A stretch of DNA of 64,000 bases from an uncultured Acidobacteriota bacterium (GTDB lineage Bacteria; Acidobacteriota; Thermoanaerobaculia; UBA5066; Gp7-AA6), in contig CAVTEW010000003.1 in assembly GCA_963733955.1 (NCBI GenBank), positions 3,104,037-3,168,036 of the forward strand, written 5' to 3'. The position numbers were made by a program, and so were the translations under genes. Each line of letters begins with the position of its first letter. Within the stretch, counting starts at the first letter, position 1. The notes under the pieces were generated by a model. It did no database searches, had not been told where the DNA came from, and saw nothing but the letters and a program-made list of their open reading frames with translations. Below, one piece after another: positions 15,592 to 63,676 of this stretch.

Positions 15592-15692
15592 GGCGTGAGG
15601 CGTCAGGTGTCAGGCGTGAGGCGGACGCCGATCACGGCCCGTCCGATCGGGCCTCCGTGCTTCGCCTCACGCCTCACCCTTTACGCCTCACG
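15592..15692. repeat. family-1 heptamer inverted-repeat element (GGCGTGA arm, spacer, CGCCTCA arm)
   Basis: ggcgtgaggcgtcaggtgtcaggcgtgaggcg ... cgcctcacgcctcaccctttacgcctcacg fills the phoU/GH1 intergenic space. The last unit contains the phoU stop codon. Confidence 0.7.
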
Positions 15693-16353
15693 TCAATTCC
15701 GTGGCGTGATGCTTCACCCACTTGGCCTCGGTCATGAAGATGGTGTCCTCGCAGATGTTGGTGGCGAGGTCGCCGACGCGCTCGAGGTTCTTGGAGATGG
15801 AGATGAGCTCGAGGCAGTAGGTAATGAGGGACGGGTACTCCACCATGTAGGTCAGGAGCTCCCGGATGATGGAAACGTTCTTCTCGTCGAGGATGTCGTC
15901 CTTCTTGATGATCTTCTTGGCCAGCTCGAGGTCCCGGTTCACGAACGCGTCCAGCGAGCCCTTCAACATGGACATGGCCACCTCGGCCATGTACGGAATG
16001 TCGATGAACGGCTTGAAGGGCTTCTGCGCGGCCAGCCGCTGGGCGCCCTCGGCGATGTTGACGGCGTGATCGCCGATGCGCTCCAGGTCGTTGTTGATCT
16101 TCAGAGCCGCGATCAGGAACCGCAGATCGACGGCCACCGGCTGCTGCAGGGCCAGCAGCTGGACGGCCTGCTCCTCGATGCCCATCTCCATCCGGTCGAT
16201 CTCCTCGTCCGCGGCGATGACCGCCCCGGCTTTCTCTTCATCGACTTCCGTCAGCGCCTCGATCGCGCGCTGGATCTGACGCTCGACTTCGCCGCCCATC
16301 AGGATCAGGTTGCGCCGGAGGTCCTCCAGCAGCTCGGAAAAATGTTCTTTCAA
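15688..16353 (-). CDS. phoU: phosphate transport system regulator PhoU
   Basis: 221 aa, two PhoU repeats (RIGDHAVNIAE / RVGDLATNICE). Its GC content is noticeably lower than its neighbours. Confidence 0.9.
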   Translation of the reverse strand: MKEHFSELLEDLRRNLILMGGEVERQIQRAIEALTEVDEEKAGAVIAADEEIDRMEMGIEEQAVQLLALQQPVAVDLRFLIAALKINNDLERIGDHAVNIAEGAQRLAAQKPFKPFIDIPYMAEVAMSMLKGSLDAFVNRDLELAKKIIKKDDILDEKNVSIIRELLTYMVEYPSLITYCLELISISKNLERVGDLATNICEDTIFMTEAKWVKHHATELT

Positions 16354-16401
16354 GTCGAGTCCCCTTTTCGCTTCGTGTCAAGGCCTTCCCCTCGTGTCGT
16401 C

Positions 16402-16432
16402 CGCCTCACGCCTCTCGCCTCACGCCTCACGC
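16402..16432. repeat. family-1 heptamer array (CGCCTCA/CGCCTCT)x4, single arm
   Basis: cgcctcacgcctctcgcctcacgcctcacgc lies between the ppx stop and the phoU start. Confidence 0.65.
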
Positions 16433-16438
16433 GGCGGG

Positions 16439-18033
16439 TCATCCCCAAAGCGCCTCCGCCGAGATCATCTCCAGGTCCTTCTGATGGATCGCCTCCTCGC
16501 GGGCCGCGGGGATCGCTCCGAGGACCACCCGGCGATGGAACACCATTTCGAAGAGGTTCGCCTTTCGGCGCGCGGCGTCGAGCTCGGCCTCGCAGTCCCC
16601 CCGCGCGACCGCGTCGAGCTCGATCCGGCGCGCCCGCACCCGGCAGGTCAGCTCGGCCACGAGCTGGCGGTGGCTCCGATCGAGACCGTCGGCGATGCGC
16701 AGGAGCGCCGCGAGCTTCTCCACCACCGGTCGCAGATAGGGATCGAGGCGCTTCCAGTTCTCGTGGGCGTCGCGGGGCCCCTTTCCCTTGTGGTAACGGG
16801 CGATCGAGGCGATCACTTCGATCTCTTCGGCCGAGAAGCCGGTCAGGTCGGCGTGGGTGATGAGGTAGTAGGAGTGCAGCTGGTGCTTGGAGAAACCGAC
16901 GTAGCAGCCCACGTCGTGCAGCAGCGCTCCGTACTGGAGCCATTCCCGCTCCGTGGCGGTCAACTGGTGAAGGGAGTGGGTCTGGTCGAAGAGCTCCAGC
17001 GCGAGGCGGGCCACGTGGGCGGCGTGCAGGACCTCGGCGTTTCCGCGCCGGAGCAGCCGATCGACGCTGCGCGCCCGCACGTCGCGGTCCGCGGAGGGGC
17101 GGCGGCCCTGGCGGGCCACGTGATCGAGCAGGATCCCTTCCCGCAGGCCCCGCTCTCCGACCACGATCGAGTCGGCCCCGGTCCGCTTCAGGATCCAGGA
17201 CAGCAGCAGCCCGCCGGGCACGGAAATGTCCCGGCGCCGCGGGTCCAGGCCGGGCACCCGCAGCTTCTCTTTCAGCGTCGCCTTGCGCAGGATCTTGTTG
17301 ACCTTCTTGAGCCCCGACCGGGTCAGGGTGCGATGCCCCGACGCGGTGGGCTCGCGCCCCAGGATCGCCGCCTCGTGCACGAGGGACAGGGACTGGATCG
17401 TTCCCGAGGAGCCCACGCAGGTCTTGAACCCGACCTTCTGAACGGCTTCGGCGGCCTTCTTCGCGGCCGACCGCACCACCCGTTTCATATCCTTGCGGTC
17501 TCCGGCGCTGGGGGGATCGTTGCGGGAGAACCGGTCGGCCAGACGCACCACGCCCAGGGGGAGGCTCTCGGTCAGGAGCACGCGCGAGCCGTCGGAGACG
17601 ACGAACTCGGTCGATCCTCCCCCGATGTCGATCAGGAAGAGCGGATCGAGGCGCGCCGGAAACTCGCTGCGCACGCCCAGGTGGATCAGCCGCGCCTCCT
17701 CCTCGCCGGAGATGACGTCCACGGACACCCCGGTGCGCCGCTTGACCGCGTCCAGGAACTCCTGGGAGTTCTCGGCCTCCCGCACCGCGCAGGTCGCGAC
17801 CGCCCGCACCAGCTCGGCGCCCTGCGCGGCGATCGACTTCTGGAACTGCTCGACCGCGCTGGCGCCGGCCTCGATGGCTTCCGGGGAGAGGCGCCCGGTC
17901 GCCAGGGTCTCGCTGCCCAGTCGGACCAGGGACTTCTCCCGGGCCACGATTTCCAGGACGCCGTCCTGGTCCACCGCCGCCACCAACAGCTTGATGGTAT
18001 TGGTCCCGATGTCGATGGCGGCGAGCTTTTTCA
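16439..18033 (-). CDS. ppx: exopolyphosphatase / guanosine pentaphosphate phosphohydrolase (Ppx/GppA) with C-terminal HD domain
   Basis: Start at GTG (VKKLAAIDIGTNTIKLLVA...). ASKHA-fold motifs plus an HD region (LLHDVGCYVGFSKHQLHSYYLI). The upstream extension of the ORF is Arg/Gly-rich noise. Confidence 0.85.
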
Positions 18034-18145
18034 CGGCAAAGAAATTGTCCGCGGGCCCGCGGAGGACCGCGTCAACTCCTTGTGAAGATGGTATGAAGTC
18101 GTCAACCTTTCTTTCAGCCAGTCCGAACCTATAATAGCGCCCCCC

Positions 18146-18949
18146 ATGGCCGAAAACCTCTGGCGCCGGCGCGTGCGCGCTCTTCAGAAAGCGCGCAAGG
18201 ATCTTCGCGGAAACGAGGCCGAGGCCATTCACGACCTGCGCGTCGCGCTGCGGCGCATCGGCGCGACGGCCGCCGCGCTCGGGAAGAAGAAGATCGAGCG
18301 CCGGTCCAGGAAACTGGTGAGCGCCTTTTCCGAGCTGCGCCAGATGGAGGTCGACCGCGCGCTGCTCGCGCGGGTCCACGCGCTCGGCCTCCTGCCCGAG
18401 GACGCCTATTCCGGCCTGCAGGCGCGCTGGGAAGTGCGTTACGCCGCGGGCGCGCGCAAAGCGATGCGCCTGGCGGAGGGGCGCAGGATGAAAAAGCTCG
18501 CCGCGCAGATCCGGCGGCGGGCCCGGCGCGACCCCGGTGATCTCATGCTTCGCCTCGACCTGGAGCGGGCGCGCGCCGAGCGCCGGCTCGTGCCGCCGGG
18601 GGACGACGCCTCGGATCGTGATCTCCATCGCTATCGCCTGGCGGTCAAGCGGGCGCGCTACGTCGCCGAGGACCTGGCGGCCTGCGGAGTCCGGGGGCTC
18701 GACGCGGCCATCGCCCGGGAAAAAGAGCTCCAGGAAGCCCTGGGCCGCTGGAACGACGCGCGCCTCTTCCGGATCCGGCTCGTGGAGACCCGGGCGCAAG
18801 CCGAGGAGCGGGGCGCCGTTACGCTGGCCCTCGAGCTCGACCGCCTGATCGCGGCCCTCGAGGGAACCGTCGCCGCGGCCCGCGCCGCGGCGCTGGGAGC
18901 CGCTGCGCGGCTGGGCAACGTGATCCCGTTTCTGCAGAGAAGCGCGTAA
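18146..18949 (+). CDS. CHAD-domain protein (polyphosphate-granule associated)
   Basis: HDLRVALRRIGATAAAL and a second ...HRYRLAVKRARYVAE repeat are typical of CHAD. It is divergent from ppx. TATAAT lies 10 nt upstream of the ATG. Confidence 0.65.
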   Translation: MAENLWRRRVRALQKARKDLRGNEAEAIHDLRVALRRIGATAAALGKKKIERRSRKLVSAFSELRQMEVDRALLARVHALGLLPEDAYSGLQARWEVRYAAGARKAMRLAEGRRMKKLAAQIRRRARRDPGDLMLRLDLERARAERRLVPPGDDASDRDLHRYRLAVKRARYVAEDLAACGVRGLDAAIAREKELQEALGRWNDARLFRIRLVETRAQAEERGAVTLALELDRLIAALEGTVAAARAAALGAAARLGNVIPFLQRSA

Positions 18950-19195
18950 CACGTCGCCGGAGCCGCGCTTCGGGATCTGCGCGCTTTGCGCGTACCGGCC
19001 CGCCGCTCGGCCAAAGGGCCTCGACGGCGGGTCTGATCCCGACAGCTCCGCTCCGGCTCCCGCGGCGCGAGTCGTTTCGCGAATCCAGTTCGCGAAACTT
19101 GGTCGCGCCGCGAGGGGCACGAAGAGACCCAGGCCCTCCGTACCGTAGGGGCGGGGCTTGCCCCCGCCCGCGCTCCGGGAGGCACCCATCTGATT

Positions 19196-19219
19196 GATAC
19201 AATATATGCATTGTTGACA
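19196..19219. promoter_or_regulatory. AT-rich box GATACAATATATGCATTGTTGACA (ACAAT-N6-ATTGT palindrome plus TTGACA)
   Basis: Second copy of the motif seen at 4770. It lies in a 270-bp convergent intergenic region that also holds two perfect or near-perfect GC palindromes (19073-19097 and 19146-19170). Confidence 0.35.
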
Positions 19220-19220
19220 C

Positions 19221-19610
19221 TCACTCCGGGGCGCCGGCCCGACCGAGCCGCGGGAAGACGTCCGGGGCGGGAGGCCCGGCCGCGCCGCCTTTGAACCACG
19301 GCTCCGCGGCGGCGTCGAATCGCTCGATCGCGCGTCGGAACGCGATCAGATCGAGGCCGGCGAGGGTTCCGGGCAGGGGCGCGAGCTTCGTCCGGCCGGC
19401 CGCCACGAGCTGCGCGCAGCCGCTCGGGCGCTCGCCCCGGGACGCCTTCAGAAGGGCCGCGGCGATCTGGATCAGGCCCTGGAGCAGCGTCCGGATCTCC
19501 TCCACCTCCTCCAGCCAGGCTTCTTCCCAGACTTCATGGGCCTCGAAATACCGGCCCTCGTTGAACAGAACCCGGCCGCGCTCCAAGAGCGCCGGCGTGG
19601 CCTCCTTCAT
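19221..19610 (-). CDS. DUF309-family protein
   Basis: 129 aa. FNEGRYFEAHEVWEEAW matches the DUF309 signature. Confidence 0.6.
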   Translation of the reverse strand: MKEATPALLERGRVLFNEGRYFEAHEVWEEAWLEEVEEIRTLLQGLIQIAAALLKASRGERPSGCAQLVAAGRTKLAPLPGTLAGLDLIAFRRAIERFDAAAEPWFKGGAAGPPAPDVFPRLGRAGAPE

Positions 19611-19629
19611 GCTCGTCTCCCGGAAAGGA

Positions 19630-19655
19630 GAAGCCGGGGATCGCTCCCCGGCTTC
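19630..19655 (-). terminator. hairpin downstream of the TonB-dependent receptor gene
   Basis: gaagccgggga-tcgc-tccccggcttc is a perfect 11-bp stem. The minus-strand downstream sequence is U/C-rich (ttctcctttcc). Confidence 0.45.
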
Positions 19656-19675
19656 GATCGCCCGATTCGAGATCC

Positions 19676-22657: not shown

Positions 22658-22703
22658 GAAAGAACTCCTCTTCGCGATTTGAGTCTGGACTCTGCGAGTC
22701 GTT

Positions 22704-24395: not shown

Positions 24396-24418
24396 TCACG
24401 GCTGTCCGGAAGCGTCAA

Positions 24419-24451
24419 TGCAACGGACTCTGTGCAACGCGGGGTGCAACG
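24419..24451. promoter_or_regulatory. three direct TGCAACG repeats in the divergent 5'-nucleotidase / nth promoter region
   Basis: TGCAACG-gactctg-TGCAACG-cgggg-TGCAACG with 14- and 12-bp periodicity. Confidence 0.3.
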
Positions 24452-24511
24452 CCGGCTCCGATCACGGGCGGAATTAGAATCGCCAGCGCGCCACGGGCGC
24501 AGGAAGGAGTC

Positions 24512-25216: not shown

Positions 25217-25707
25217 CCGCCCTGCGCGCCTATCTCTCCGGCGCGATCGAGCATGCCGCCGACGGCGGCCGAGGCTGGAGGGACGAGGTCGCCGCCTTCC
25301 TGACCGGGCGCCTGGGCCACGACGTCTACGACCCGGCGCGCGACGAAAAGAAGGATTTGTCCGAGGAGGAACGCGCCCACTTTCGCAGCTGGAAGCACGA
25401 CGATCCGGCGCGGTTTCGGGAGGTGGTCCGGAAGATCATCGCCTGGGATCTGGACCGCGTCGAGCACCGGACCGACTACGTCGTGGCCCTGTGGGACGAG
25501 GCGTCGGGCCGGGGCGGCGGAACCGCGGCCGAGATCACGCTGGCGTACCGGCTGGGAATGCCGGTGTACCTGGTCCTGGGCATGCCGCGGGAGCAAGCCT
25601 CCGGCTGGATCCTCGCGGCGGCGACCGCAGTGTTCGAGAGTTTCGAGGAATTGCAGGTCTTCCTGTTGAATCAGCACGGTGGAAAAGCCGTGCGCCTTCA
25701 GACGTAG
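25213..25707 (+). CDS. nucleoside 2-deoxyribosyltransferase-like protein
   Basis: ATG overlaps the nth stop (ATGA). YLSGAIEH..., VVALWDEASGRGGGTAAEITLAYRLGMPVYLV resembles the Rossmann-like NDT fold (PF05014-like). Confidence 0.45.
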   Translation: MTALRAYLSGAIEHAADGGRGWRDEVAAFLTGRLGHDVYDPARDEKKDLSEEERAHFRSWKHDDPARFREVVRKIIAWDLDRVEHRTDYVVALWDEASGRGGGTAAEITLAYRLGMPVYLVLGMPREQASGWILAAATAVFESFEELQVFLLNQHGGKAVRLQT

Positions 25708-25708
25708 C

Positions 25709-25752
25709 CGCCTCACGCCTCACGCCTCACGCCTCACGCCTCACGCCTCACG
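25709..25752. repeat. family-1 heptamer array (CGCCTCA)x5, single arm
   Basis: ccgcctcacgcctcacgcctcacgcctcacgcctcacg lies between the NDT-like stop and tdk. Confidence 0.7.
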
Positions 25753-25773
25753 ATCGAGTAACATCCACCCCCC

Positions 25774-26367: not shown

Positions 26368-26634
26368 ATTTCCAATGGGGACGGCCCCAAAAGAAGTTTT
26401 CCGAAGGCCCGGCGGAAAACCCTGTCGAAATGCCTGTGGAAACGCTCGAAAAACGGCCCAAGCGCGCGGTTACCGTCCGGTTTGCACCGAGTCCTGTGCG
26501 AACCGATAACCTGCCCGCCATCAAACAATTAGGAAATTGCGCCGGAATTTCGCTGCCGGGTTTGCATCGACGGCGCTGCGTCAAAGACTTTTCCACACGG
26601 GCAAGCGCCTCGACCTCTTGGACTTAACGGCCCG

Positions 26635-28260
<1,626 letters not shown>

Positions 28261-30065: not shown

Positions 30066-30127
30066 ACCCGGGACCGGGCGGAATCGCTGGGCGGCCGCGA
30101 GCGTTGCGAGTGTCGGAGTATTGAACG

Positions 30128-36322: not shown

Positions 36323-36326
36323 GACG

Positions 36327-45800: not shown

Positions 45801-46715
45801 TCATTTCACCAGGTCTCCCACGCGCACCAACGTGACCCCCCGCTGCTCCAGTCTCGGCAGCTCCCGCTCCAGGACCGCCAGCGTGGCTGGATGGGGATGC
45901 CCGATCGCGAGCGCGGATCCTTCCGCGCGGCCCCGCTCGATCAGGCTCGCCAGGGACTTCTCCACCGCGTCCTCGGTCGCCACGTCGTCCAGAAAAACAC
46001 GGCGCGAGACCGCCGGAACGCCCGCGGCCCGCGCTTCGTCCGCGGCCACGGTCGCTTCGGTGGTGCGGCTGTCCACGAAGAAGAGGCTCCGATCGGACAG
46101 CACGCGCATGACCGCGCGCATGACGCGCGGGTCCGCCGTGGCCGCCGATCCCATGTGGTTGTTCACTCCCACCGCGCCCGGCACCGAGTCGAGGTCCGCG
46201 CGGAGGGTCTGGCCGATCTCCCGATCGCTCTGGGCCAGCAACAGGACGCCCGGTCCGGGGCGCACCGACGGAAACCCCTTCGGCTCCATCGGGAGATGCA
46301 GCAGGACCTGCTTTCCGGAAGACGCGAGCTCGCGCGCGACCCGGGCGCTCGAGGCGAGGCCGGGCAGGACCGCGACGGAGACGGGCTCGGGCCACCGCGC
46401 GATCCGGTCCACCGCGGCGAGGTCGTTGCCCAGATCGTCGATGAGAATGGCCACGCGAGGGCCGGGGCTCGCAAGGACCTCCCGACCTGCCGACCCGGTC
46501 GGTGGCGCGACAGGACGGGGGGACGGGGAGACGTGGAGACGGGGGGGACGGACGCGGGGACGCGGAGACGCGGAGACGCGGGGAGACGGCCCGGGGACGG
46601 GGACGGGAACCTGCCGGGGCGGGCGTGTTTTCAGATAGAGGGCGACGCCGAGAAGAAGGGCGAGAAGGGCAAAGAAGACCGTCGCCGGGGAAACCCGGGA
46701 GCGTCTGCGGCTCAA
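45801..46715 (-). CDS. divergent polysaccharide deacetylase family protein (YibQ-like)
   Basis: RVAILIDDLGN...VAVLPG...LLHLPMEP...NHMGS motifs are typical of the YibQ/DUF610 family. Confidence 0.6.
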   Translation of the reverse strand: MSRRRSRVSPATVFFALLALLLGVALYLKTRPPRQVPVPVPGPSPRVSASPRPRVRPPRLHVSPSPRPVAPPTGSAGREVLASPGPRVAILIDDLGNDLAAVDRIARWPEPVSVAVLPGLASSARVARELASSGKQVLLHLPMEPKGFPSVRPGPGVLLLAQSDREIGQTLRADLDSVPGAVGVNNHMGSAATADPRVMRAVMRVLSDRSLFFVDSRTTEATVAADEARAAGVPAVSRRVFLDDVATEDAVEKSLASLIERGRAEGSALAIGHPHPATLAVLERELPRLEQRGVTLVRVGDLVK

Positions 46716-46739
46716 CGCAACGCCGGCGCGGCGCGGCCC

Positions 46740-47903: not shown

Positions 47904-48006
47904 CGTGGCAATGGTAACACCGCCGACCCGCGGCTTTATTCGAAGACGCGGGTGTCAGGATGAAGGAGATGGGGGATGACTCTAACGCCTCCGTCCGATG
48001 GACCAA

Positions 48007-48038
48007 GTCCTACGTCCTACGTCCTACGTCCTACGTCC
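48007..48038. repeat. family-3 heptamer array (GTCCTAC)x4
   Basis: gtcctacgtcctacgtcctacgtcctacgtcc lies between ctpA and the M23 peptidase gene. Confidence 0.65.
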
Positions 48039-48063
48039 TACGTCCCAGATCCTTCGTCCATCC

Positions 48064-49191: not shown

Positions 49192-49195
49192 CAAG

Positions 49196-49300
49196 GATTT
49201 GTGATTTGTGATTCGTGATTTGCGATTGCGGCGCGGACGGCGGCATCCGCTCGAAGGTGACTGATCCGCCCCGATCACAAATCGCAAATCGCACATCACC
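49196..49300. repeat. family-2 heptamer inverted-repeat element (GATTTGT arm, 44-bp spacer, ACAAATC arm), flanked by CACCAAGG direct repeats
   Basis: gatttgtgatttgtgattcgtgatttgcgattgcg ... acaaatcgcaaatcgcacatc. The octamer CACCAAGG is present at both borders (49187-49196 and 49297-49304). Confidence 0.7.
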
Positions 49301-49309
49301 AAGGGGCGC

Positions 49310-51430: not shown

Positions 51431-51488
51431 CGTTCCCCGCCAGTTTACAGGGTTCGGACGTCCGAGCGCGTCCCATAGAATCGGAGCG

Positions 51489-52676: not shown

Positions 52677-52708
52677 ACGCTCCGATGGAGCAGACCAGAG
52701 GAGACGCC

Positions 52709-53203
52709 ATGAAGAAGGAGACCGCCGGCTCGCCCAGCCTGAAGGACGATCCCCGCGAGTGGATCGCCTCCGTATTCACCCGGATCGAGGACGTCGTCTA
52801 CATCTGCCTGGGGCTCCTGCTGGCGGCCTGCGCCGGGGCGCTGCTCGTTTCCGCCGGGTCGAACTTCGTCCGCAGCCTGTCCGCCGGGGGGCTGGGAGAC
52901 CACATCGTCGAGATTCTCGATCAGCTTCTGCTGGTGCTCCTGGTGGTGGAGATCCTCTACACCGTGCTGGTCTCCTTCCGCGAGCACATCCTCGTCCCGG
53001 AGCCGTTTCTGATCATCGGCCTCATCGCGGCGATCCGGCGCGTGCTGCTGGTGACCGCGGAGTTTCCGCGCCTCCTCGAGAAGGGAGACGCGTCCTTCCG
53101 CAATGGAATGATCGAGCTCGGCCTGCTCGGCCTCCTGGTGCTGGCCTTCGTGACCTCGATCGTCCTGCTGCAGCGCCGGGGACACGCCGTCCAACGGACC
53201 TAG
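52709..53203 (+). CDS. PsiE-like phosphate-starvation-inducible membrane protein
   Basis: Four-TM pattern; the ILDQLLLVLLVVEILYTVLVSFREH...LIIGLIAAIRRVLLV helix pair is PsiE-like, similarity by recall only. GAGGAG RBS. Confidence 0.5.
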   Translation: MKKETAGSPSLKDDPREWIASVFTRIEDVVYICLGLLLAACAGALLVSAGSNFVRSLSAGGLGDHIVEILDQLLLVLLVVEILYTVLVSFREHILVPEPFLIIGLIAAIRRVLLVTAEFPRLLEKGDASFRNGMIELGLLGLLVLAFVTSIVLLQRRGHAVQRT

Positions 53204-54198
53204 CCCGGCCCGGCTTTGTTCTTGTCCTTGTCCTTGTCGTTGTCGTTGTCGTTGTCGTTGTCCCGCACGGGCGCCGGCTTGCGGGACGGATCGTCCCAGA
53301 AGGGGTAGAAGCAGTACCACTGGGCGGGATTGGCGCCGACGTATCGCTCCAGCAGCGAGACGTACCGCCCGATGTTGGCCAGGAGCGCGGCGTCCCGGTC
53401 GGGACCGCGGACGATCTCGAGCGGCTCTTCGATGACCGCGCGGTAGCGGGATCCCGCCGTCTCCAGGATGAAGGCGGGCAGCACCGTCGCTTCCGTGGCC
53501 ATCGCGACGCGCAACGGCCCCCGTGGGAAGAACGCCTCCCGGCCGAAGAACGGGACGGGGACGCCGGTGTTGTCGAAATCGCGGTCTCCCTGCATGGCCA
53601 CGATTTCGTTGGCCTCCAGCGCGCGCATGACCGAGAGCGTGGGGACGAAGCTGTGATCGACGGGAATCTCCGTGACGCCGCGGCTTTCGTGGAGCCTGCG
53701 CCGCGCCCGCTCCACGCCGGGAAAGATGTCCGGCACCAGCACGACGTGGATCGGCATCCGGACCTCCGCGAGCATGAAGCTGCCGACCTCCCAGTTTCCC
53801 AGGTGCGCGGTCAAGAGCAGCACGCCCTTGCCGCGCAGCCGCCCTTCGACGATCCGGGAGAAGCCGTCCACGCCTTCGATCAGACGCGCCGCCTCGCGCG
53901 CCGGGCGCATGGCGAAGTGGAGAAAGTCGAACCAGGCCGCGAAGTGGCCCTGAAACATGCCGTCGGCGGCACGCTCTACCGCCGGCGCGGCGGCGGGCTG
54001 TCCCAGGATGATCGAGAGATTCGCATGCACCGCCTGGACGTACTTGGGCCGGGAACGGAAGTAGAGGCGTCCGAGGGTGCGGGCGATCCAGCGCGAGAGC
54101 CGCCGGGGAACGTAGCGGGCGAACGCCAGCGCGGTGGGGAACCAGAAGTAGGACGTCGCGGAGGCGAGCGCGCGCACCAGCCGATTGCGGCTGGACAT
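53200..54198 (-). CDS. lipid A biosynthesis lauroyl/myristoyl acyltransferase family (LpxL/HtrB-like)
   Basis: LLLTAHLGNWEV (HX4D-like acyltransferase motif). Unusual C-terminal DNDNDNDNDKDKDKNK tail. Confidence 0.7.
   Translation of the reverse strand: MSSRNRLVRALASATSYFWFPTALAFARYVPRRLSRWIARTLGRLYFRSRPKYVQAVHANLSIILGQPAAAPAVERAADGMFQGHFAAWFDFLHFAMRPAREAARLIEGVDGFSRIVEGRLRGKGVLLLTAHLGNWEVGSFMLAEVRMPIHVVLVPDIFPGVERARRRLHESRGVTEIPVDHSFVPTLSVMRALEANEIVAMQGDRDFDNTGVPVPFFGREAFFPRGPLRVAMATEATVLPAFILETAGSRYRAVIEEPLEIVRGPDRDAALLANIGRYVSLLERYVGANPAQWYCFYPFWDDPSRKPAPVRDNDNDNDNDKDKDKNKAGPG
53217..53263. repeat. hexamer tandem repeat (GTCCTT)x2-(GTCGTT)x5 inside the 3' end of the lpxL-like gene
   Basis: gttcttgtccttgtccttgtcgttgtcgttgtcgttgtcgttgtcc encodes the (DN)n(DK)n tail on the minus strand. 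Confidence 0.7.
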
Positions 54199-54272
54199 CT
54201 TTTCCTGCACGGAAAGAAGTTATCAGCTCCCCGGCGCGGGCGGACCCGGGCTCGCGCGGGTTAACATCCCGC

Positions 54273-54812: not shown

Positions 54813-54820
54813 TCGCCGGC

Positions 54821-56602: not shown

Positions 56603-57495
56603 GAATTGACCTGGCGTTGGCCCGGCGCTGGGGCCTGTCCCGGCGGGCGGCGCGCGAGGCGGTGCGCGACGGCCGCGTCGACCTCGACGGCGCGGTCATG
56701 CACGAGCCCGGGCGCGAAGTCTCCGAGAGCGCCGACGTCTCTTACCAACCCGATCGCCCCGTGCGGCGCCGGGTCCGCTCGCGGCTCAACGTGCTCCTCG
56801 AGGAAGACGACTTCGTCGTCGTGGACAAGCCCGCGGGTCTTCTGACCGTTCCGACCGCGGAGCGCGAACGGGAGACGCTGCTGGCGCGGGTGCTCGACTA
56901 TCTCCACCACCGCTACCGGCGGCGGCCAGTCGCGTTCGTGGTCCACCGCATCGACCGGGACACCTCCGGCGCCGTGGTCTTCGCGCGCAATCGGGAAACG
57001 CTCCACGCCCTCCAGGAGCTCTTTCGCCGGCACGCCATCGATCGGGAATACGTGGCGATCGTGGAGGGCGCGCTGTCGGGCCCCGGCAGGTTCGACGCCG
57101 ACCTGGTGCGCGACGGCGGCGATCGCCGAAGAGGGATCGCGCGCGGCTCGGAGCGGGGGCAGCGCGCGGTCACACGGTACCGCGTGCTCGAGCGCCTGGC
57201 CGGATCGACGCTCGTGTCCGTCGAGCTGGAGACCGGACGCACGCACCAGATCCGCGTCCACTTCGCCGGCGCCGGGCACCCGGTCCTGGGAGATCCGGTC
57301 TATCGCCCGCGCGGGATGGGGCCGCCGCCGCTGGAGGCGCCGCGGCAGATGCTTCACGCCCGCCGGCTGGGATTCGTTCATCCCCGCACGGGAGCGCGCG
57401 TGCTCGCGGAGTCTCCGCTTCCGGCGGATTTTGCCGACGCGGTGGCCCGGCTCAAGGCCAAAAGAAAAGCGCCCCGGGATTCCCGGGGCGCTTGA
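56599..57495 (+). CDS. RluA-family pseudouridine synthase (RluD-like) with S4 domain
   Basis: VVHRIDRDTSGAVVFAR catalytic Asp motif. TGRTHQIRVHFA. Confidence 0.85.
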   Translation: MRIDLALARRWGLSRRAAREAVRDGRVDLDGAVMHEPGREVSESADVSYQPDRPVRRRVRSRLNVLLEEDDFVVVDKPAGLLTVPTAERERETLLARVLDYLHHRYRRRPVAFVVHRIDRDTSGAVVFARNRETLHALQELFRRHAIDREYVAIVEGALSGPGRFDADLVRDGGDRRRGIARGSERGQRAVTRYRVLERLAGSTLVSVELETGRTHQIRVHFAGAGHPVLGDPVYRPRGMGPPPLEAPRQMLHARRLGFVHPRTGARVLAESPLPADFADAVARLKAKRKAPRDSRGA

Positions 57496-57516
57496 GTTTC
57501 GGTCGCGTTCGGAGTT

Positions 57517-57541
57517 TCACGCCTCACGCCTCACGCCTCAC
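57517..57541. repeat. family-1 heptamer array (CACGCCT)x3, single arm
   Basis: cacgcctcacgcctcacgcctcacg lies in the convergent rluA/ompA gap. Confidence 0.65.
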
Positions 57542-57556
57542 GGCGCGCGAAGCCCG

Positions 57557-58183
57557 CTAGGCAAGCACGACCACGACCACCCGGCGATTCTTCGCCCGGC
57601 CGGTCTTGGTCTTGTTCGAGTCGACCGGCTCTTCCTGCCCGTAGGAAATGGTGGACATCCGGTTCAGGGCGATCCCCTGCTTGTTGAGGTACCGGCGCAC
57701 CGCCTCCGCCCGCGACTCCCCGAGCTTGTAGTTGTAGTCCTTGGCGCCCGTCGCGTCGGTGTGGCCCTGGATCTCCAGGTAGACGTTCTTGTTCTCCGAC
57801 TTGAGCCGCTCGGAGAAATCCTTGAGCTTGTCCTCCGCCTCCTTGGAGAGCAGATGACCGTTCAACGGGAACTTCACCGCGTCGTCGGACAGGACGAGGG
57901 AATACACGAACTTGCCTTCGGCCAGCTTCCCGGCCGCCTCGGCGCGCTCGAGCGCTTCCCGAGTCGTCTTGTCCAGCTCCGCGATGCGCGAGTCGTGATC
58001 CTTGACCCGGCTCTGCGTCGCCTCGACCTGAGTCTCGACCTCGTTGATCCTCTTCTCCGACGCGGCGCTGCTTTTGGAGACCTCGTCCGAGACATAGCGC
58101 TTCGACGCGCAGCCCGTCAGCCCGGAGATCCCGAGAAGTAGCGCCCCGCCCGCGATCCAGGAGATCCGCCTTCGGTCAACCAT
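57557..58183 (-). CDS. OmpA-family lipoprotein (peptidoglycan-associated)
   Basis: Lipobox LTGC, a coiled-coil linker, and a C-terminal OmpA-like domain (NRRVVVVVL). Confidence 0.8.
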   Translation of the reverse strand: MVDRRRISWIAGGALLLGISGLTGCASKRYVSDEVSKSSAASEKRINEVETQVEATQSRVKDHDSRIAELDKTTREALERAEAAGKLAEGKFVYSLVLSDDAVKFPLNGHLLSKEAEDKLKDFSERLKSENKNVYLEIQGHTDATGAKDYNYKLGESRAEAVRRYLNKQGIALNRMSTISYGQEEPVDSNKTKTGRAKNRRVVVVVLA

Positions 58184-58205
58184 CGAACCCCTCCTTTCCA
58201 AAACG

Positions 58206-59210
58206 TCAACGAACCGCCGCCGGACTCGCCGCGGGCTTCATGCCCGAAGCGGGGGCCGGCGCGCTCCCCCGATATCCACGGCGAGCCCGGATCACGAACC
58301 GACCGGCCTTGGCCACGGACACCATAATGATCCGGTATTTGGGGTCCCCGCGTCCAGAGGGGGCAAACCCCAAAAGGTACTGTTTTCTCACCTCGGCATC
58401 GATTTTCTGGGCCATCGGGCGCAGATCGTCGTCCCCTCCGGCCAGAAACATCTGCCCCCCGCTCGAGGAAGCCAGGATCTTCAAATTTTCCAGCGCCAGG
58501 TCGCGCCGCTCCTCGTCTGTGAGTCGGTCAAACGCCGCATTCTTCATACCGATGGCAAAGACCGGTATGGACACTTCTTGCAGGATTCCTGCCATTTCGA
58601 CCGAACTCAACCGGCTGGCGTTGTCGACGCCGTCGGTGAAGAGCAGGATGGCGCGCTTGCCGTTGCGCCCGGAGAGCATCCGCGAGGGCGTGGCCGCCAC
58701 GGCGTCGAAGAGGGCGGTCCGGCCCGACGCTTCCAGCTGCCCGAGCAGCCGGAGCAGGCGCGCGGGGTCGGCGGAGAAGTCCGCGATCTGGCGCACTTCG
58801 TCTTCGGAAAAGGCGAAGAGCGCGAAATCGTCCCCCGGCCGGCGGCGCGCGATGATCGCGCGGACAGCGTCCTTGGCGTGCTCGAGCTTGTCGGCCAGGC
58901 GCATGCTGCCGGAGGTGTCGATGAGAAACGCGAACGACACCGGCGCGTTGTCGTCCCTCTCGAACGTGTCGACGTTCACGGCGACGCCCTCGACGCGGAC
59001 TCGGAAATCGCCGCGGGAGAGGCCGTCCACGAACCGGCCCTTCGTGTCGAAGACCTGGACCGGCAGGAGGACGTACTCCGAGCCGGTGCTCTCGGAGAAC
59101 GACGGGACCTGGGGCTCCTGCGGCTTGGCCTGCCCCAGAGCCGCCGCCGCGGCGGCCCAGGCGGCCAGCGCCGCGGCCAGCCGGGTCGTTTTCGAAGCCG
59201 GTGTCCTCAT
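58206..59210 (-). CDS. VWA-domain protein (acidobacterial VWFA-related type)
   Basis: Start at MRTPASKTTR (signal). FLIDTSGSM, LFTDGVDN VWA/MIDAS motifs. The long upstream ORF extension is noise. Confidence 0.7.
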   Translation of the reverse strand: MRTPASKTTRLAAALAAWAAAAAALGQAKPQEPQVPSFSESTGSEYVLLPVQVFDTKGRFVDGLSRGDFRVRVEGVAVNVDTFERDDNAPVSFAFLIDTSGSMRLADKLEHAKDAVRAIIARRRPGDDFALFAFSEDEVRQIADFSADPARLLRLLGQLEASGRTALFDAVAATPSRMLSGRNGKRAILLFTDGVDNASRLSSVEMAGILQEVSIPVFAIGMKNAAFDRLTDEERRDLALENLKILASSSGGQMFLAGGDDDLRPMAQKIDAEVRKQYLLGFAPSGRGDPKYRIIMVSVAKAGRFVIRARRGYRGSAPAPASGMKPAASPAAVR

Positions 59211-59252
59211 CTGAGATAGAGAAAGGGTCCCACAACCTGATAATTCCGTGCC

Positions 59253-59993
59253 ATGAGCGATTCGAAACGCTTCGCCGTCGTCCTCGTCAGGCCGCACCTC
59301 TCGTCCAACCTGGGGTCGGTCGCGCGTGTGGGCAAGAATTTCGGGGTCCGGGACCTGCGCCTGGTCGAGCCCGCCGCTCCCGCCGACGAGGACGCCGCCC
59401 GGCTGGCCTCCGGAGCCGACGACATCCTGGCGCAGGCCCGCCGGTATCCGTCCCTGGACGCCGCGGTCGACGAGTTCGGGGTCGTGATGATGACGACGTC
59501 GCTGCGCGGACGAGGCGCGCGCCGCGCCTGCGATCTGCCGGGGCTGCCTCGATTCGTCGCCGACGTCGGGGCGTCCAACCGGATCGCCTTCGTCTTCGGG
59601 CCGGAGAGGAGCGGACTGACCGAGGCGGAGCTCGCCCGGTCTTCCGCTACGCTGACGATCCCGACCGAGGCGACGTTCCCGACCATGAACCTGTCGCACG
59701 CCGTGGCCGTGGTCCTGGCCGCGGCGCTTTATGGCCGGCGGCCGGAGGCGCCCCCGACCGACGCCGTCTGGGCGCCCGCCCGCGAGGTGGAAGGCATGAT
59801 CGATCACTGGGACCGCGCGCTCGACGCGATCGGCTTCTACGACACCGGCCATCGCGCCCGGTCTCTGCGCGACTGGAGGGGACTGGTGGCCGGGCGCCCC
59901 CTGGCCGAGCGCGAGGTGGCGATGCTGCGGGGAGTGGCGAATCGGATCCTGGTCTCCCTCAGGAGAAAGAGGGGCGGAGGGGAGAATTTGTGA
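59253..59993 (+). CDS. SpoU/TrmH-family RNA 2'-O-methyltransferase (TrmJ-like)
   Basis: FAVVLVRPHLSSNLGSVARVGKNFG..., FVFGPERSGLT, NLSHAVAVVL SPOUT motifs. Confidence 0.8.
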   Translation: MSDSKRFAVVLVRPHLSSNLGSVARVGKNFGVRDLRLVEPAAPADEDAARLASGADDILAQARRYPSLDAAVDEFGVVMMTTSLRGRGARRACDLPGLPRFVADVGASNRIAFVFGPERSGLTEAELARSSATLTIPTEATFPTMNLSHAVAVVLAAALYGRRPEAPPTDAVWAPAREVEGMIDHWDRALDAIGFYDTGHRARSLRDWRGLVAGRPLAEREVAMLRGVANRILVSLRRKRGGGENL

Positions 59994-60100
59994 TTTGAGA
60001 TTTGTGATTTGTGATTGCGGCTCGTCGAGACTCGGACCCGGCGAAGACTCGGCCCGGGACAATCGCAAATCGGAAATCGCAATTCACAAATCGCAAATTC
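59985..60100. repeat. family-2 heptamer inverted-repeat element filling the convergent trmJ/ndk gap
   Basis: aatttgtgatttgagatttgtgatttgtgattgcg ... aatcgcaaatcggaaatcgcaattcacaaatcgcaaattc. The left arm includes the trmJ TGA stop. Confidence 0.7.
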
Positions 60101-60102
60101 TT

Positions 60103-60522
60103 CTAGATCAGCTCAGCCTCCGCGAAGAAGAACGCGATCTCCTTGGCAGCGTTCTCCGTGGAGTCGCTGCCGTGGATCGCGTTTCTCTCGATGTCGGTCC
60201 CGTACAAGTTTCTTATTGTACCGGCCTCGGCCTTGCGCGAGTCCGTGGCGCCCATGACCTGGCGCAGCCGGGCCACCGCGTCGGCCCGCTCGAGCGCGGC
60301 CACGAGGACCGGCCCCTCGGTCATGAAGCGGACCAGGGCGTCGTAGAAGGGCCGCTCCCGGTGCACCGCGTAGAAGGCCCGGGCCTGATCCGGCGCGAGA
60401 CGAAGCCTCCTGACCCCGGCGAGGCGGAAGCCCTCCTTCTCCAGGTGGGCCAGGATGGCGCCGGCCTTGCCGGCCGCCATGGCATCGGGTTTGACGATCG
60501 TGAGCGTTGTTTCCATTTTCAC
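60103..60522 (-). CDS. ndk: nucleoside diphosphate kinase
   Basis: TLTIVKPD...NAIHGSD... Confidence 0.9.
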   Translation of the reverse strand: MKMETTLTIVKPDAMAAGKAGAILAHLEKEGFRLAGVRRLRLAPDQARAFYAVHRERPFYDALVRFMTEGPVLVAALERADAVARLRQVMGATDSRKAEAGTIRNLYGTDIERNAIHGSDSTENAAKEIAFFFAEAELI

Positions 60523-60543
60523 TTTCTCGTCACTCGTCTCTCG

Positions 60544-61431
60544 TCACTTTCCCAGCACTTCCTTCATCTTCTGTCCCATCTCGGCTGGCGAGCGCACCAC
60601 ATGCACCCCCGCGGCCCCCAGGGCCTTCATCTTGTCGGCCGCCGTCCCGCGCCCTCCCGCGATGATCGCTCCGGCGTGCCCCATCCGGCGGCCTGCGGGC
60701 GCGGTCTGACCGGCGATGAACGCCACGACCGGTTTTCGAAAGTGCCCGGCGATGAAGCAGGCCGCCTCTTCCTCGGCCATGCCTCCGATCTCACCGATCA
60801 GGATCACCGCGTCCGTGCCCGGATCCTCGCCGAAGGCGCGGAGGCAATCGATGAAGTTCGTGCCGTTGACCGGGTCGCCGCCGATCCCGATGACAGTGGA
60901 CTGGCCCAGGTCCAGGCGGGTCAGCTGATCGACCGCCTCGTACGTCAGCGTGCCGGAGCGCGAGATGACGCCGATCCTGCCGGGCCTGTGGATCCGGCCC
61001 GGCATGATGCCGATCTTGCACTGGCCCGGCGTGATGATGCCCGGGCAGTTGGGCCCGATGAGCCGCACGGGCTTGCCGGCCGCCGCGACGCCGGCCAGAA
61101 ACGCCTTGACCCGGATCATGTCGTTGGTGGGGATCCCCTCGGTGATGCAGGCGATGACCGCCACGCCGGCCTCGGCCGCCTCGACGACCGCGTCGGCGGC
61201 GAAGGGCGGCGGCACGAAGATCATGGAGGCGTTGGCGCCGGTCGCGGCGACCGCGTCGGCCACGGTCGAGAACACCGGGATCCCCTCGTGGGTGGCGCCG
61301 CCCTTGCCCGGCGTGACGCCGGCGACGACCTGCGTGCCGTACTCGCGCGACGCCAGCGCGTGGAACGTCCCCTCGCGGCCGGTCAAGCCCTGGACCAGGA
61401 GGCGCGTCTCGTTGCCGACCCAGATGCTCAT
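60544..61431 (-). CDS. sucD: succinyl-CoA synthetase alpha subunit
   Basis: 295 aa. CoA-binding and His-phosphorylation loop (GHAGAII). Confidence 0.95.
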
Positions 61432-61453
61432 GGGAACACCGGAGCCGGGAAGC

Positions 61454-61526
61454 GGGAGGCGAGAGGCGGTAGGCGGACGAGCAGCCGGGCGGCGCGCCTT
61501 ACGCCTCTCGCCTTACGCCTGACGCG
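61454..61526. repeat. family-1 (variant) heptamer inverted-repeat element between sucC and sucD
   Basis: gggaggcgagaggcggtaggcgg ... gccttacgcctctcgccttacgcctgacgcg. Confidence 0.65.
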
Positions 61527-61534
61527 CGAAGCGC

Positions 61535-62692
61535 TCACCGCGTCGCCTCCACCGCTTTGCGCGCGCCGTCGGCCAGGCCGTCGGCGGGCGTGATCTTCAA
61601 GCCCGATTCGCGCAGGATCTTCTTGCCCAGATCGACGTTGGTGCCTTCCAGGCGCACCACGACCGGCGTCGAGAGCCCCATCTCCTTGACCGCGGCGACC
61701 ACGCCGTTGGCGATGATGTCGCAGCGCATGATTCCGCCGAAGATGTTGATCAGGATCGCCTTCACGTTCTTGTCGGACAGGATGATCCGGAACGCGTTCT
61801 TGACCTGTTCCTCGTTGGCGCCGCCGCCCACGTCCAGGAAGTTGGCCGGCTCGCCGCCGGCCAGCTTGACCAGGTCCATGGTGGCCATGGCCAGGCCCGC
61901 GCCGTTGACCATGCAGCCGACGTTGCCGTCGAGCTTGATGTAGTTCAGGCCGAACTTGGAGGCTTCGACCTCCAGAGGGTCCTCTTCGTTCAGGTCGCGC
62001 ATCTCGCGGATCTCGGGATGACGAAAGAGCGCGTTGTCGTCGAAGGTCATCTTGGCGTCCAGGGCCAGGACGTCTCCCGACCTGGTGATGAGCAGCGGAT
62101 TGATCTCCGCCAGCGATGCGTCGGTGTCGGCGTAGGCCCGGAAAAGGGCTTGCATGAAGGCCGTCCCCTTGCGGAAGGTGTCGCCGGCGAGCGCGAGCGC
62201 GAAGGCGAGCTTGCGCGCCTGGAACGGGAACATCCCCAGGGCCGGATCGATCGCCTCGCGGACGATGGCGGAGGCGTCCCTGGCCGCCACCTCCTCGATC
62301 TCCATTCCTCCGAACCTCGAGACCATCATCGCGGGAAGCCCGCGGCTGCGGTCGAGGGTGATCCCCAGATACAGCTCGCGGTCGATGTCCAGGGCCTCCT
62401 CGACCAGGACCTTCTGGACCACCCGGCCGCCCGGTCCGGTCTGCGGCGTGACCAGCGTCATCCCCAGGATGGCCTTGGCCAGCGCCTCGGCCTCCGCGGG
62501 ATCCTTGGCCAGCTTGACGCCGCCGCCCTTGCCGCGCCCGCCGGCGTGGATCTGGGCCTTGACCACCGCGCGCCCGCCCAGGCGCTTGGCGATCTCCCGG
62601 GCCTCCGCGGGACTGTCGGTGACTTCTCCGCGCGGCACGGTCACGCCGTAGCGCGCGAGGATCGACTTGGCCTGGTATTCGTGAACCTTCAT
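61535..62692 (-). CDS. sucC: succinyl-CoA synthetase beta subunit
   Basis: 385 aa, ATP-grasp. [17 protein letters not shown]. Confidence 0.95.
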
Positions 62693-62754
62693 GGAAGAGC
62701 GCGGATTATACCGGGCGTGCCCTCGAGGCTCCGTTCGGCTTCGAGAGACCTTTC

Positions 62755-62840
62755 GTGAGGGGTCAGGCGTAAGGCGTTAGGCGAAGCCTCCGCGCCTTCT
62801 GTCACGCCCTCTCCTCACGCCTCACGCCTTACGCCTTACG
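62755..62840. repeat. family-1 heptamer inverted-repeat element between sdhB and sucC
   Basis: gtgaggggtcaggcgtaaggcgttaggcgaag ... cctcacgcctcacgccttacgccttacg. The right arm contains the sdhB stop. Confidence 0.7.
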
Positions 62841-63582
62841 AGCCCAGCAGCTTCTTGAGCCCGTGCAGCGTGCAGGCCCGGTACATCTCGGCGATCGCCG
62901 TCGTCAGGGGGATCGACTTGGGGCAGGCCCGCACGCAGTTCTGCGCGTTGCCGCAGTCGTCCACGCCGCCGTCGCCCATGAGGGCCTCGATCCGCTCGGC
63001 CGCGTTCATCGCCCCGGTGGGATGGGTGTTGAAGAGGCGGGCCTGGGCGATGGCCGAGGCGCCGATGAAGTTGGACCGGTCGTTGACCTGCGGGCAGACG
63101 TCCAGGCAGTTGCCGCAGGTGATGCACTGGGAGAAGTGGTAGGCGATCTCCCGCTCCGGCTCGGGCAGGCGCGGCCCCGGGCCCAGGTCGTAGGTCCCGT
63201 CGATGGGGATCCACGCCTTGACGCGCTTCAACGCGTCGAACATCTGCTGGCGGTCGACGGCCAGGTCGCGCATCACCGGAAACTTGCCCATCGGTTCCAG
63301 GCGGATCGGCTGTTGGAGCCCGTCGATCAGCGCCGTGCAGGCCATCCGGGAGACCCCGTTGATGCGCATGGCGCAGGAGCCGCAGACCTCCTCCAGGCAG
63401 GCGCGGTCGTAGACGATGGGCGAGGTGGCCTTGCCCTGCGTGGTCCTGGGGTCCTTTTCGATCTGCATCAGGACCGAGATCACGTTCTGCCGCGGCTGGT
63501 AGGGAACCTCGAACTCTTCCCAGTAGGGGGAGGACGTGGGCGAGTCCTGGCGCTTGACGGAGAGGCGGATGGTGGAGGGCAT
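62836..63582 (-). CDS. sdhB: succinate dehydrogenase / fumarate reductase iron-sulfur subunit
   Basis: Start at MPSTIRLSVKRQ. 2Fe-2S (CLEEVCGSCAM) and 4Fe-4S (CITCGNCLDVCP, CVRACP) motifs. The upstream ORF extension MLRLTPHALRLT is heptamer translation. Confidence 0.9.
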   Translation of the reverse strand: MPSTIRLSVKRQDSPTSSPYWEEFEVPYQPRQNVISVLMQIEKDPRTTQGKATSPIVYDRACLEEVCGSCAMRINGVSRMACTALIDGLQQPIRLEPMGKFPVMRDLAVDRQQMFDALKRVKAWIPIDGTYDLGPGPRLPEPEREIAYHFSQCITCGNCLDVCPQVNDRSNFIGASAIAQARLFNTHPTGAMNAAERIEALMGDGGVDDCGNAQNCVRACPKSIPLTTAIAEMYRACTLHGLKKLLGS

Positions 63583-63593
63583 GGCGAACCTCG

Positions 63594-63676
63594 TTAGGCG
63601 TAAGGCGTGAGGGGTAAGGCGAAGCACGACGTTGTTTCCGTCATGCGCCTCACGCCTAACGCCTCACGCCTCACGT
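63594..63676. repeat. family-1 heptamer inverted-repeat element between sdhA and sdhB
   Basis: ttaggcgtaaggcgtgaggggtaaggcgaag ... cgcctcacgcctaacgcctcacgcctcacg. The right arm abuts the sdhA stop. Confidence 0.7.

Follow-up and report, generated by a model that had tools for sequence, protein, structure and literature searches.

What are the tandem 7-nt arrays that occupy one intergenic gap after another in a 64,000-nt stretch of an uncultured Acidobacteriota bacterium (contig CAVTEW010000003.1, positions 3,104,037 to 3,168,036; the whole stretch is referred to as the window), and what keeps them at the ends of genes? Twelve such loci were found, six of them formed by two arrays facing each other as an inverted pair. 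Our reading, plausible if somewhat short of probable, is that the arrays are generated by slippage and copied ectopically, and that the paired form would act as a stem-loop at cistron and operon boundaries, in the manner of repetitive extragenic palindromes (REP) and bacterial interspersed mosaic elements (BIME).

The loci were identified with Tandem Repeats Finder (TRF) and a period scan of our own (73–100% matches). The window, which is 68% G+C, contains 19 period-7 runs, compared with 0–8 at the other periods scanned (4–12) and a chance level of 0.57 ± 0.67 in first-order Markov simulations of the same DNA. Four unit families are represented: TNAGGCG/CGCCTNA (eight loci), GATTTGT/ACAAATC-like (two), GTCCTAC (one), and CTCGTCA (one). 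The first is degenerate, its N being G 44 times, A 18, C 9, and T 8 in the window and a close relative (L118, described below). All 12 loci are intergenic or touch only the terminal codons or stop of a gene. An earlier note on this DNA had claimed tandem-heptamer arrays at 11 or more loci, dispersed in intergenic DNA, and the arrays are present where it placed them.

The gene contexts given here are based on Pfam matches and on called genes of related loci, the gene caller, which relies on G+C at third codon positions (GC3), being incomplete. Flanking genes with Pfam support encode PhoU, Ppx/GppA, thymidine kinase, S41 and M23 peptidases, Nth, a SpoU-type methylase, NDK, SucD, SucC, SdhB, and SdhA. 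The sdhA-sdhB gap is taken up exactly by a pair of 4 + 4 units (63592–63677) that runs from the sdhA stop TGA (63676–63678) to the sdhB Shine-Dalgarno (SD) sequence GAGG. A second pair follows sdhB (62754–62841; arms 62754–62783 and 62802–62841), and a third lies in the sucC-sucD gap (61441–61526; arms 61441–61476, of NNAGGCG variants, and 61495–61526). The sucD-ndk gap is filled by a short array, (CTCGTCA)x3.3 on the plus strand (60525–60548; sense TGACGAG), which includes the sucD stop and was missing from the earlier list. Between the convergent spoU-type methylase gene and ndk lies a pair of the GATTTGT family (59986–60100; arms 59986–60017 and 60061–60098). Every junction of the sdhA-sdhB-sucC-sucD-ndk segment, and the ndk-spoU gap, is in this way occupied, as the earlier note had claimed for the junctions from sdhA to sucD and for the ndk gap.

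The two remaining pairs lie elsewhere in the window. One, detected by TRF, lies between the phoU stop (15688–15690) and the start of a GH1 glycosidase gene (15592–15692; TNAGGCG-type arm 15592–15623, CGCCTNA-type arm 15663–15692), and its 39-nt spacer contains a small hairpin of its own. The other, a GATTTGT-family pair found by both methods (49195–49299; arms 49195–49227 and 49273–49299), is located between the stop of a phosphodiesterase-like gene (49310) and the start of an M23 peptidase gene. The six pairs thus comprise four of TNAGGCG and two of GATTTGT type, with the G-rich arm first in every case. Both GATTTGT loci have the paired architecture attributed to them in the earlier note. Four of its five supposed TNAGGCG pairs are indeed pairs; the fifth, at 2397–2420, is a single arm, as that note itself half concedes.

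The arrays reach into the genes themselves. The sdhB stop TAA (62836–62838) falls within the outermost (first) unit of the sdhB-sucC hairpin, and the spoU stop TGA (59991–59993) within the first GATTTGT unit of the ndk-spoU hairpin, while the sdhA and phoU stops directly adjoin arrays as TGA-CG-TGAGGCG. The stop codons, and even the final codons, of some genes are array-encoded. TGA, TAA, or TAG is present in TGAGGCG, TAAGGCG, TTAGGCG, GATTTGT, GTAGGAC, and TGACGAG, and a tripled heptamer presents its seven triplets in all frames. The arrays create or replace stops and terminal codons, and open reading frame (ORF) callers are misled by them: longest-ORF calls read through the arrays.

The expectation that paired loci form long, imperfect hairpins is borne out by folding. 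The pairs span 90–125-nt imperfect hairpins with energies of −45 to −73 kcal/mol and z-scores of −2.1 to −9.1 relative to dinucleotide shuffles. The lowest z-score belongs to the sdhA-sdhB element (63592–63677: −59.8 kcal/mol, z −9.1), at the base of which the bases preceding the stop codon are paired with the GG of the SD. The other values are −70/−73 kcal/mol, z −6.1/−8.0 (15592–15692); −57.5/−45.5 kcal/mol, z −7.0/−4.9 (59986–60100); −48.3 kcal/mol, z −3.7 (49195–49299); and −50.4 kcal/mol, z −3.0 (62754–62841). The weakest fold of the six is that of the sucC-sucD pair, folded as 61436–61532 (z −2.06). No tRNAs are found in the window, and Rfam gives no match there at the gathering threshold; the sub-threshold matches are driven by a terminator hairpin, described below.

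By its SucC homologues, the DNA belongs to Acidobacteriota, near Thermoanaerobaculia. How stable the elements are was assessed by comparing the window, junction by junction, with the syntenic locus of L118, a relative whose SucC is 95% identical. Hairpins at sdhA-sdhB and sdhB-sucC are orthologous in the two genomes, with the same unit counts and the same unit variants by position, and the single array between ompA and rluD (57514–57546) is also common to both. At sucC-sucD, L118 retains only the 3′ arm, the 5′ arm being absent. Its ndk-spoU gap is 11 nt long and has no hairpin, compared with 109 nt and a GATTTGT hairpin in the window, and the last ~eight codons and stop of its spoU are encoded by a GGAGGCG-type array. 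A further pair is found at the sdhC-sdhA junction of L118, which lies beyond the window, and related arrays are present at sucD-ndk in L118 and a more distant relative (L199).

Within the four conserved arms, ~6 of 127 nt have changed (~5%), while third codon positions differ by 21–44% between the genomes and by 21–28% in the flanking genes (binomial p ~2e-7 for the arms relative to 21%). In the loop of the sdhA-sdhB element, ~7 of 21 positions differ (~33%). Because the arms have changed so much less than either third positions or this loop, they are constrained over the short term, with the loop unconstrained. A stretch of ~25 nt in which the unit variants follow one another in an unusual order, GCGGGAGGCGAGAGGCGGTAGGCGG, is common to the first arm of the window sucC-sucD pair and to the non-orthologous array at the spoU end in L118; its presence at non-orthologous loci of two genomes suggests copying. 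Between two contigs that are 99.98% identical no array differs in length; the arrays are therefore not hypervariable on that scale.

Over longer distances the units are replaced. Further relatives, at 74–90% identity, were taken from a metagenome scan with SdhB and from additional contigs, and have other heptamer units, or none, at the same junctions. GGGACTC pairs occupy sdhC-sdhA in L199 and L201, and pairs of GAATTTC/TTGCGGA type occupy sdhA-sdhB in L120, L121, and L199. In L119, CGTTTAA is found upstream of sdhB and GCGGGAC after the sdhB stop. The sdhB-sucC junction of L123 carries a TCAGTTN...AACTGAN pair (TAACTGA unit). L199 also has a GTGACGA...CACTTGT pair at sucD-ndk and GTCGACA arrays in two gaps, and L201 a GATTTGT pair at another locus. 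In L122 and L125, both sdhB junctions are gaps of 2–30 nt without any repeat. Period 7 is still the commonest in the loci of the relatives (23 runs vs at most 9 at any other period, in 352 kb). The earlier claim that one architecture is shared by differing units is confirmed and extended to many more units.

The same junctions also receive other insertions. In L126 (~2660–2850) and L127 (~2170–2370), at 74% SdhB identity, the sdhB-sucC gap contains a palindromic element of another kind, GGGGTCAGGTCTCCACTTGCCACATCGC...GCGATGTGGCAAG, in one copy or two; this junction thus attracts other hairpin repeats as well. In L201 (6818–7267), sdhA and sdhB are separated by an inserted gene for a member of the 23S rRNA intervening-sequence protein family (PF05635), of which L118, L199, and L201 have copies upstream of mdh. 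Between sdhB and sucC, L199 and L201 carry insertions of other genes.

Beyond these relatives, (CGCCTCA)3 was found at no fewer than 117 loci in genomes of many phyla, none of them from the genome of the window. The loci bearing it contain 323 period-7 runs, compared with at most 67 at any other period (795 kb). Arrays and their inverted pairs thus recur in relatives and in other phyla rather than being confined to the window. Single arrays are about as common as pairs, and make up about half of the window loci. Four units is the commonest array length, a tentative result that may partly be an artefact of the detection rule and the 3-unit scan seed. CGCCTCA as a special sequence, spread by horizontal gene transfer or read by a universal factor, was considered and rejected, control heptamers being equally common in viral contigs (CGCCTCA 18; heptamers of the same composition 18, 5, and 51). 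One predicted viral contig, IMGVR_UViG_3300032160_000019 (40 kb), carries (CTCGCCA)3 or longer arrays at six or more separate loci (L254, L262, L270, L294, L299, and L300); dispersed families of a single heptamer unit thus exist on putative phage or mobile DNA as well. In some other genomes (L103, 7739–7816; L045, 366–422), the spacer between TNAGGCG and CGCCTNA arms contains a canonical bidirectional terminator (A-run, hairpin, T-run), and the arrays there flank a pre-existing terminator.

The arms of a pair are not arranged at random. The G-rich strand runs 5′ to 3′ into the gap from each side, on both strands. With a strict regular expression, the TNAGGCG arm lies 5′ of the CGCCTNA arm in 20 of 20 pairs from 14 genomes of several phyla; with a looser detector, TNAGGCG-family pairs are G-first in 32 of 32 cases and other unit families in 50 against 5. 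Ordinary perfect inverted repeats, examined as a control, divide 76 to 63. In ~10 of 13 single arrays checked by hand, the strand that enters the gap 5′ to 3′, starting at whichever gene boundary is closer, is likewise the G-rich one. A rule placing the arm with stops in all three frames first was rejected: the non-stop unit TCAGGCG is not depleted (9, vs 8 for TTAGGCG), and the stop-bearing arm comes second in the TAACTGA pair of L123. None of the four rival readings set out below fully explains the polarity, which leaves room for a more novel origin.

Strict polarity that is independent of the unit is inherent to terminal inverted repeats, and an unlikely alternative is that the pairs are non-autonomous mobile elements, similar to miniature inverted-repeat transposable elements (MITE) or to REP doublets (REPIN), moved by a transposase encoded elsewhere, with single arrays as solo ends or decayed copies. 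Such elements would also account for the dispersal of families within a genome, for presence or absence between close relatives, and for the identical unusual array block at non-orthologous loci, and insertion sequences lie at a fixed distance from the paired sites of Geobacter metallireducens (PMC2700814). However, the four TNAGGCG pairs of the window have unrelated spacers of 19–39 nt, unlike copies of one element, and no target-site duplication was found at the boundaries of the six pairs or on comparing the filled and unfilled ndk-spoU sites. The arms are not palindromes, unlike REP units; many different units occur per genome; and single arrays are as frequent as pairs. MITE proper were rejected on the unrelated sequence and length of the spacers and the lack of target-site duplication.

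The same polarity, holding across dozens of unrelated units, together with arrays that overwrite gene 3′ ends and supply stops, is the ground for a far more speculative reading, to which we attach very little weight: a telomerase-like healing of breaks, in which repeats would be added from a template to broken DNA 3′ ends and two healed ends then joined. The product would have the geometry of a head-to-head telomere fusion, with the unit of each lineage conceivably reflecting its short template, however faint the prospect. If true, it would amount to a telomerase-like process in bacteria.

In the stem-loop reading that we prefer, polymerase slippage in 7-nt steps would lengthen the arrays, and ectopic copying or template switching would carry them to new gaps. 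They would persist only where genes stay unbroken, and would hence come to lie pressed against stop codons and start signals. The transcript, or single-stranded DNA, would then fold into an imperfect hairpin of ~28 bp per arm, bringing the upstream stop close to the downstream ribosome-binding site or promoter. Paired elements would in this way be structural boundaries that block 3′ exonucleases, insulate cistrons, and keep a disruptive insertion compact. The location of the arrays in gaps, their capacity to fold, their polarity, and their conservation and turnover are observed directly; it is from these that we infer both the origin by slippage and copying and the role at the RNA level.

Several observations weigh against this account. 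Across 11 elements, the two strands differ in folding energy (sense minus antisense) by anything between −19 and +11 kcal/mol without consistent bias, on which ground selection at the RNA level through a sense-strand folding advantage was rejected. No compensatory changes are seen in orthologous hairpins (window and L118; L199 and L201), only mismatches, and the idea of compensatory substitution was likewise abandoned. The arms may be conserved for no other reason than that an insertion lying between a stop and the following ribosome-binding site or promoter is costly to unfold. The single arrays, about half of the loci, are left unaccounted for by a hairpin role, and strict polarity would not be expected from hairpin function by itself. 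Since some relatives have gaps of 2–30 nt without a repeat at the same junctions, any function is not essential. Finally, no U-tract or T-run follows any paired element and a consensus terminator scan flags none of them, while at least one U-tract terminator of canonical form is present in the genome (57467–57493).

Some of these points are shared by a second unlikely alternative, although one we take more seriously than mobility: that the arrays have no function, being by-products of a bias of replication or repair toward 7-nt slippage, tolerated in non-coding DNA and lost at random. Heptanucleotide simple sequence repeats (SSR) are in widespread excess in prokaryotes, a finding with which, as with its explanation by polymerase slippage, Mrazek et al. 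(2007) are credited. The unit sequence is not special, as the counts in viral contigs indicate, elements are absent from some relatives, and compensatory changes are not seen. Neutral by-products do not, however, explain why divergence in the arms is about five-fold below that at synonymous sites when one loop is free to diverge, or why each position has retained its unit variant since L118 split off; nor does local slippage alone predict that polarity should be strict or that one unit should recur at many loci of a genome.

The hairpins might instead be terminators or attenuators that do not depend on a U-tract and that adjust how strongly sdhCAB, sucCD, and ndk are expressed relative to one another. 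We regard this as very unlikely. The long, GC-rich stems lie immediately past stop codons, only one strong canonical terminator was detected in 20 kb, and the sdhB-sucC element, followed by a conserved TATAAT ~15 nt ahead of the sucC ATG, is in an operon-end position. Set against this, the U-tract is absent, on which basis canonical intrinsic terminators were rejected outright; elements also separate the tightly linked sdhA and sdhB, where termination would do harm; one array is itself followed by a canonical terminator; and the elements are dispensable in relatives. The canonical terminator (57467–57493, minus strand) has a 12-bp stem with 10 GC pairs followed by TTCTTTT, lies downstream of ompA and the TGAGGCG array at 57514–57546, inside the 3′ end of the convergent rluD-like gene, and is the source of a sub-threshold Rfam match to the Burkholderia small RNA ncS54. 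The TATAAT itself (window 62700–62720) is also kept in L118, L120, L122, L199, and L201, and the sucC ATG that follows has no SD. Its conservation, its distance from the ATG, and the missing SD suggest that sucCD has its own promoter and a leader that is very short or absent.

The arrays could also be double-stranded DNA sites for an oligomerizing protein reading one 7-bp unit per dimer, such as a ribbon-helix-helix (RHH) protein like omega/ParB of pSM19035, or IHF/HU, with a role in chromosome organization or transcription regulation. This, too, seems improbable, a shade more so than mobile elements. Omega reads contiguous WATCACW heptads in direct and inverted orientation (PMC9499535), which the 7-bp units resemble in arrangement. 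Conservation acts on sequence rather than pairing, RNA folding favors neither strand, and arrays of four units are the mode, as also in PMC4692102 and PMC2700814. One unit, AATCACA (59986–60017, minus strand), fits WATCACW, the others do not, and with ~30 unit families seen one such match is about what chance would give. Against protein sites, many unrelated units occur at neighboring junctions of one genome, so that many cognate proteins would be needed, and orthologous junctions exchange one unit for another within short evolutionary distances. The arrays are found at the ends of genes and within operons, not at promoters. RHH operators of the pSM19035 parS type overlap promoters of a partition or regulator operon encoding the cognate RHH protein, whereas the element at 59986–60100 is flanked by the 3′ ends of the convergent spoU and ndk genes. 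Balanced arms and a spacer would also be unnecessary for binding.

Five further single arrays of the window, all given in plus-strand letters, have the following contexts. A TNAGGCG-family array, (GGCGTGA)x3, lies at 2397–2420, 4 nt from the start of a minus-strand ORF (1200–2393), and was found by TRF and the period scan. Past the ppx stop, at a distance of 5 nt, is (CGCCTCA)x4.4 (16401–16433), which reads TGAGGCG in minus-strand sense. A perfect (CGCCTCA)x6.3 array (25707–25754) ends 20 nt ahead of the thymidine kinase start, at the right-hand end of the 557-nt gap that follows nth. The perfect (GTCCTAC)x5.6 array (48003–48048; minus-strand sense GTAGGAC), which the earlier note had given as 48007–48038, is confirmed with these wider limits, 16 nt past an M23 peptidase stop. 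The last, (CGCCTCA)x3.7 (57514–57546), is the array between the convergent rluD-like and ompA-like genes.

Other features of the window were recorded alongside these. In the gap between divergent genes at 2435–2629, a minus-strand hairpin, GCCCCGG-GGAAA-CCGGGGC, is followed by seven T (~2440–2480); it is terminator-like with no obvious gene to terminate and may belong to a small RNA. No Pfam-supported gene and no Rfam match lies in the ~490 nt (25217–25706) that separate nth from the CGCCTCA array preceding tdk. G-rich repeats of periods 8 and 37 (GGACGGGG / GGACGCGG; 37-nt unit x2.4, TRF score 133) occupy 46513–46607 within a high-GC3 ORF region and are of a type distinct from the heptamers. 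A hexamer array, (TTGTCC)x8 with 92% matches, lies near the 3′ end of the minus-strand ORF 53200–54219 (53216–53263) and is probably a coding dipeptide repeat.

In many bacterial genomes, no other long simple repeats are as over-represented as heptamers. The present lineage is unusually dense in them, with nearly every junction of a conserved operon occupied and different units in close relatives. This density makes several questions testable, namely the effect of the hairpins on sdh, suc, and ndk expression, the source of the G-first polarity, and the spread of one unit.

REP and BIME elements are extragenic hairpins, forming inverted doublets between cistrons or at operon ends, with roles in mRNA 3′-end protection and protein binding. 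Single REP units are imperfect palindromes of 20–40 nt with a conserved tetranucleotide, mobilized by RAYT transposases. The likeness to REP/BIME proposed in the earlier note holds for placement: the paired elements of the window are also extragenic, lie between cistrons and at operon 3′ ends, and are hairpin-forming inverted doublets. It does not extend to membership, the arms being non-palindromic tandem heptamers, with unrelated spacers and no shared internal sequence, and the pair ends reading CGTNAGG...CCTNACG rather than being of the GTAG type.

Tandem heptamers are closer relatives. The TAACTGA arrays of Beggiatoaceae, cyanobacteria, and Bacteroidetes comprise two to six units, are overwhelmingly intergenic and near start codons, and have a scattered phylogenetic distribution for which no mechanism is given (MacGregor 2015, PMC4679880). 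The window arrays resemble these and the cyanobacterial short tandemly repeated repetitive (STRR) sequences, and TAACTGA itself forms the inverted pair at sdhB-sucC in L123. In Beggiatoa, almost all TAACTGA repeats are direct (one inverted in 170) and oriented toward start codons (PMC4679880), whereas inverted pairs make up half of the window loci. In Burkholderia pseudomallei, CGCCTCA is a 7 × 10 intergenic variable-number tandem repeat (VNTR) with 22 alleles (U'Ren et al. 2007, PMC1853098). Such VNTRs are hypervariable typing markers, in contrast to the window arrays, which at two junctions have kept unit number and variants over ~25% synonymous divergence.

Paired architecture has been reported in Geobacter and Xanthomonas. 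G. metallireducens has 49 elements, each built of four GGACCGG heptamers (Aklujkar et al. 2009, PMC2700814), and more generally sites of three to five tandem 7–9-nt repeats, mostly as opposite-strand pairs at variable distance in intergenic DNA, also within operons, for example proB-proA (PMC2700814). The window elements are likewise paired tandem repeats between genes and inside operons. The Geobacter sites, some classes of which have 8–9-nt units, were annotated as putative binding sites for IHF/HU or global regulators; polarity and evolutionary behavior are described here and not for those sites (PMC2700814). Xanthomonas genomes each contain ~185 arrays of GGGAATC with a mode of four units, including 70–75 convergent inverted pairs (Rehm et al. 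2015, PMC4692102), and 83% of arrays have the same gene context in two species, the repeat type being kept while the length varies (PMC4692102). These arrays and those of Nostoc (GGGGA(C/T)T), where a preprint reports that heptamer arrays affect expression, are, like those of the window, intergenic 7-nt arrays with close convergent pairs on opposite strands (PMC4692102). They differ in that their units have G3–4 tracts and were read as G-quadruplex formers, whereas the window has an acidobacterial host, several unrelated units together in 64 kb, and no G3 tract in TNAGGCG, GATTTGT, GTCCTAC, or TGACGAG. A G-quadruplex, a property proposed for the Xanthomonas and Nostoc members and not one that defines the class, was accordingly rejected here; the shared architecture cannot depend on it, and the explanation is not general.

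Because the Xanthomonas and Geobacter reports describe paired heptamer arrays, the architecture is known though uncharacterized, and the earlier suggestion of an undescribed repeat class did not hold against these precedents (PMC4692102, PMC2700814, PMC1853098). That the loci are new members of the class of prokaryotic intergenic heptameric long SSRs is well supported: near-perfect head-to-tail 7-nt iterations of at least 2–3 copies are present at 12 loci, one unit recurs (eight TNAGGCG and two GATTTGT loci within 64 kb), all 12 loci are intergenic or overlap no more than a stop or terminal codons, and six are convergent inverted pairs. To this class the present loci add a polarity rule, arm and loop conservation measured against a close relative, the turnover of units, array-encoded stops, and a unit, CGCCTCA, that is no commoner than control heptamers of its composition.

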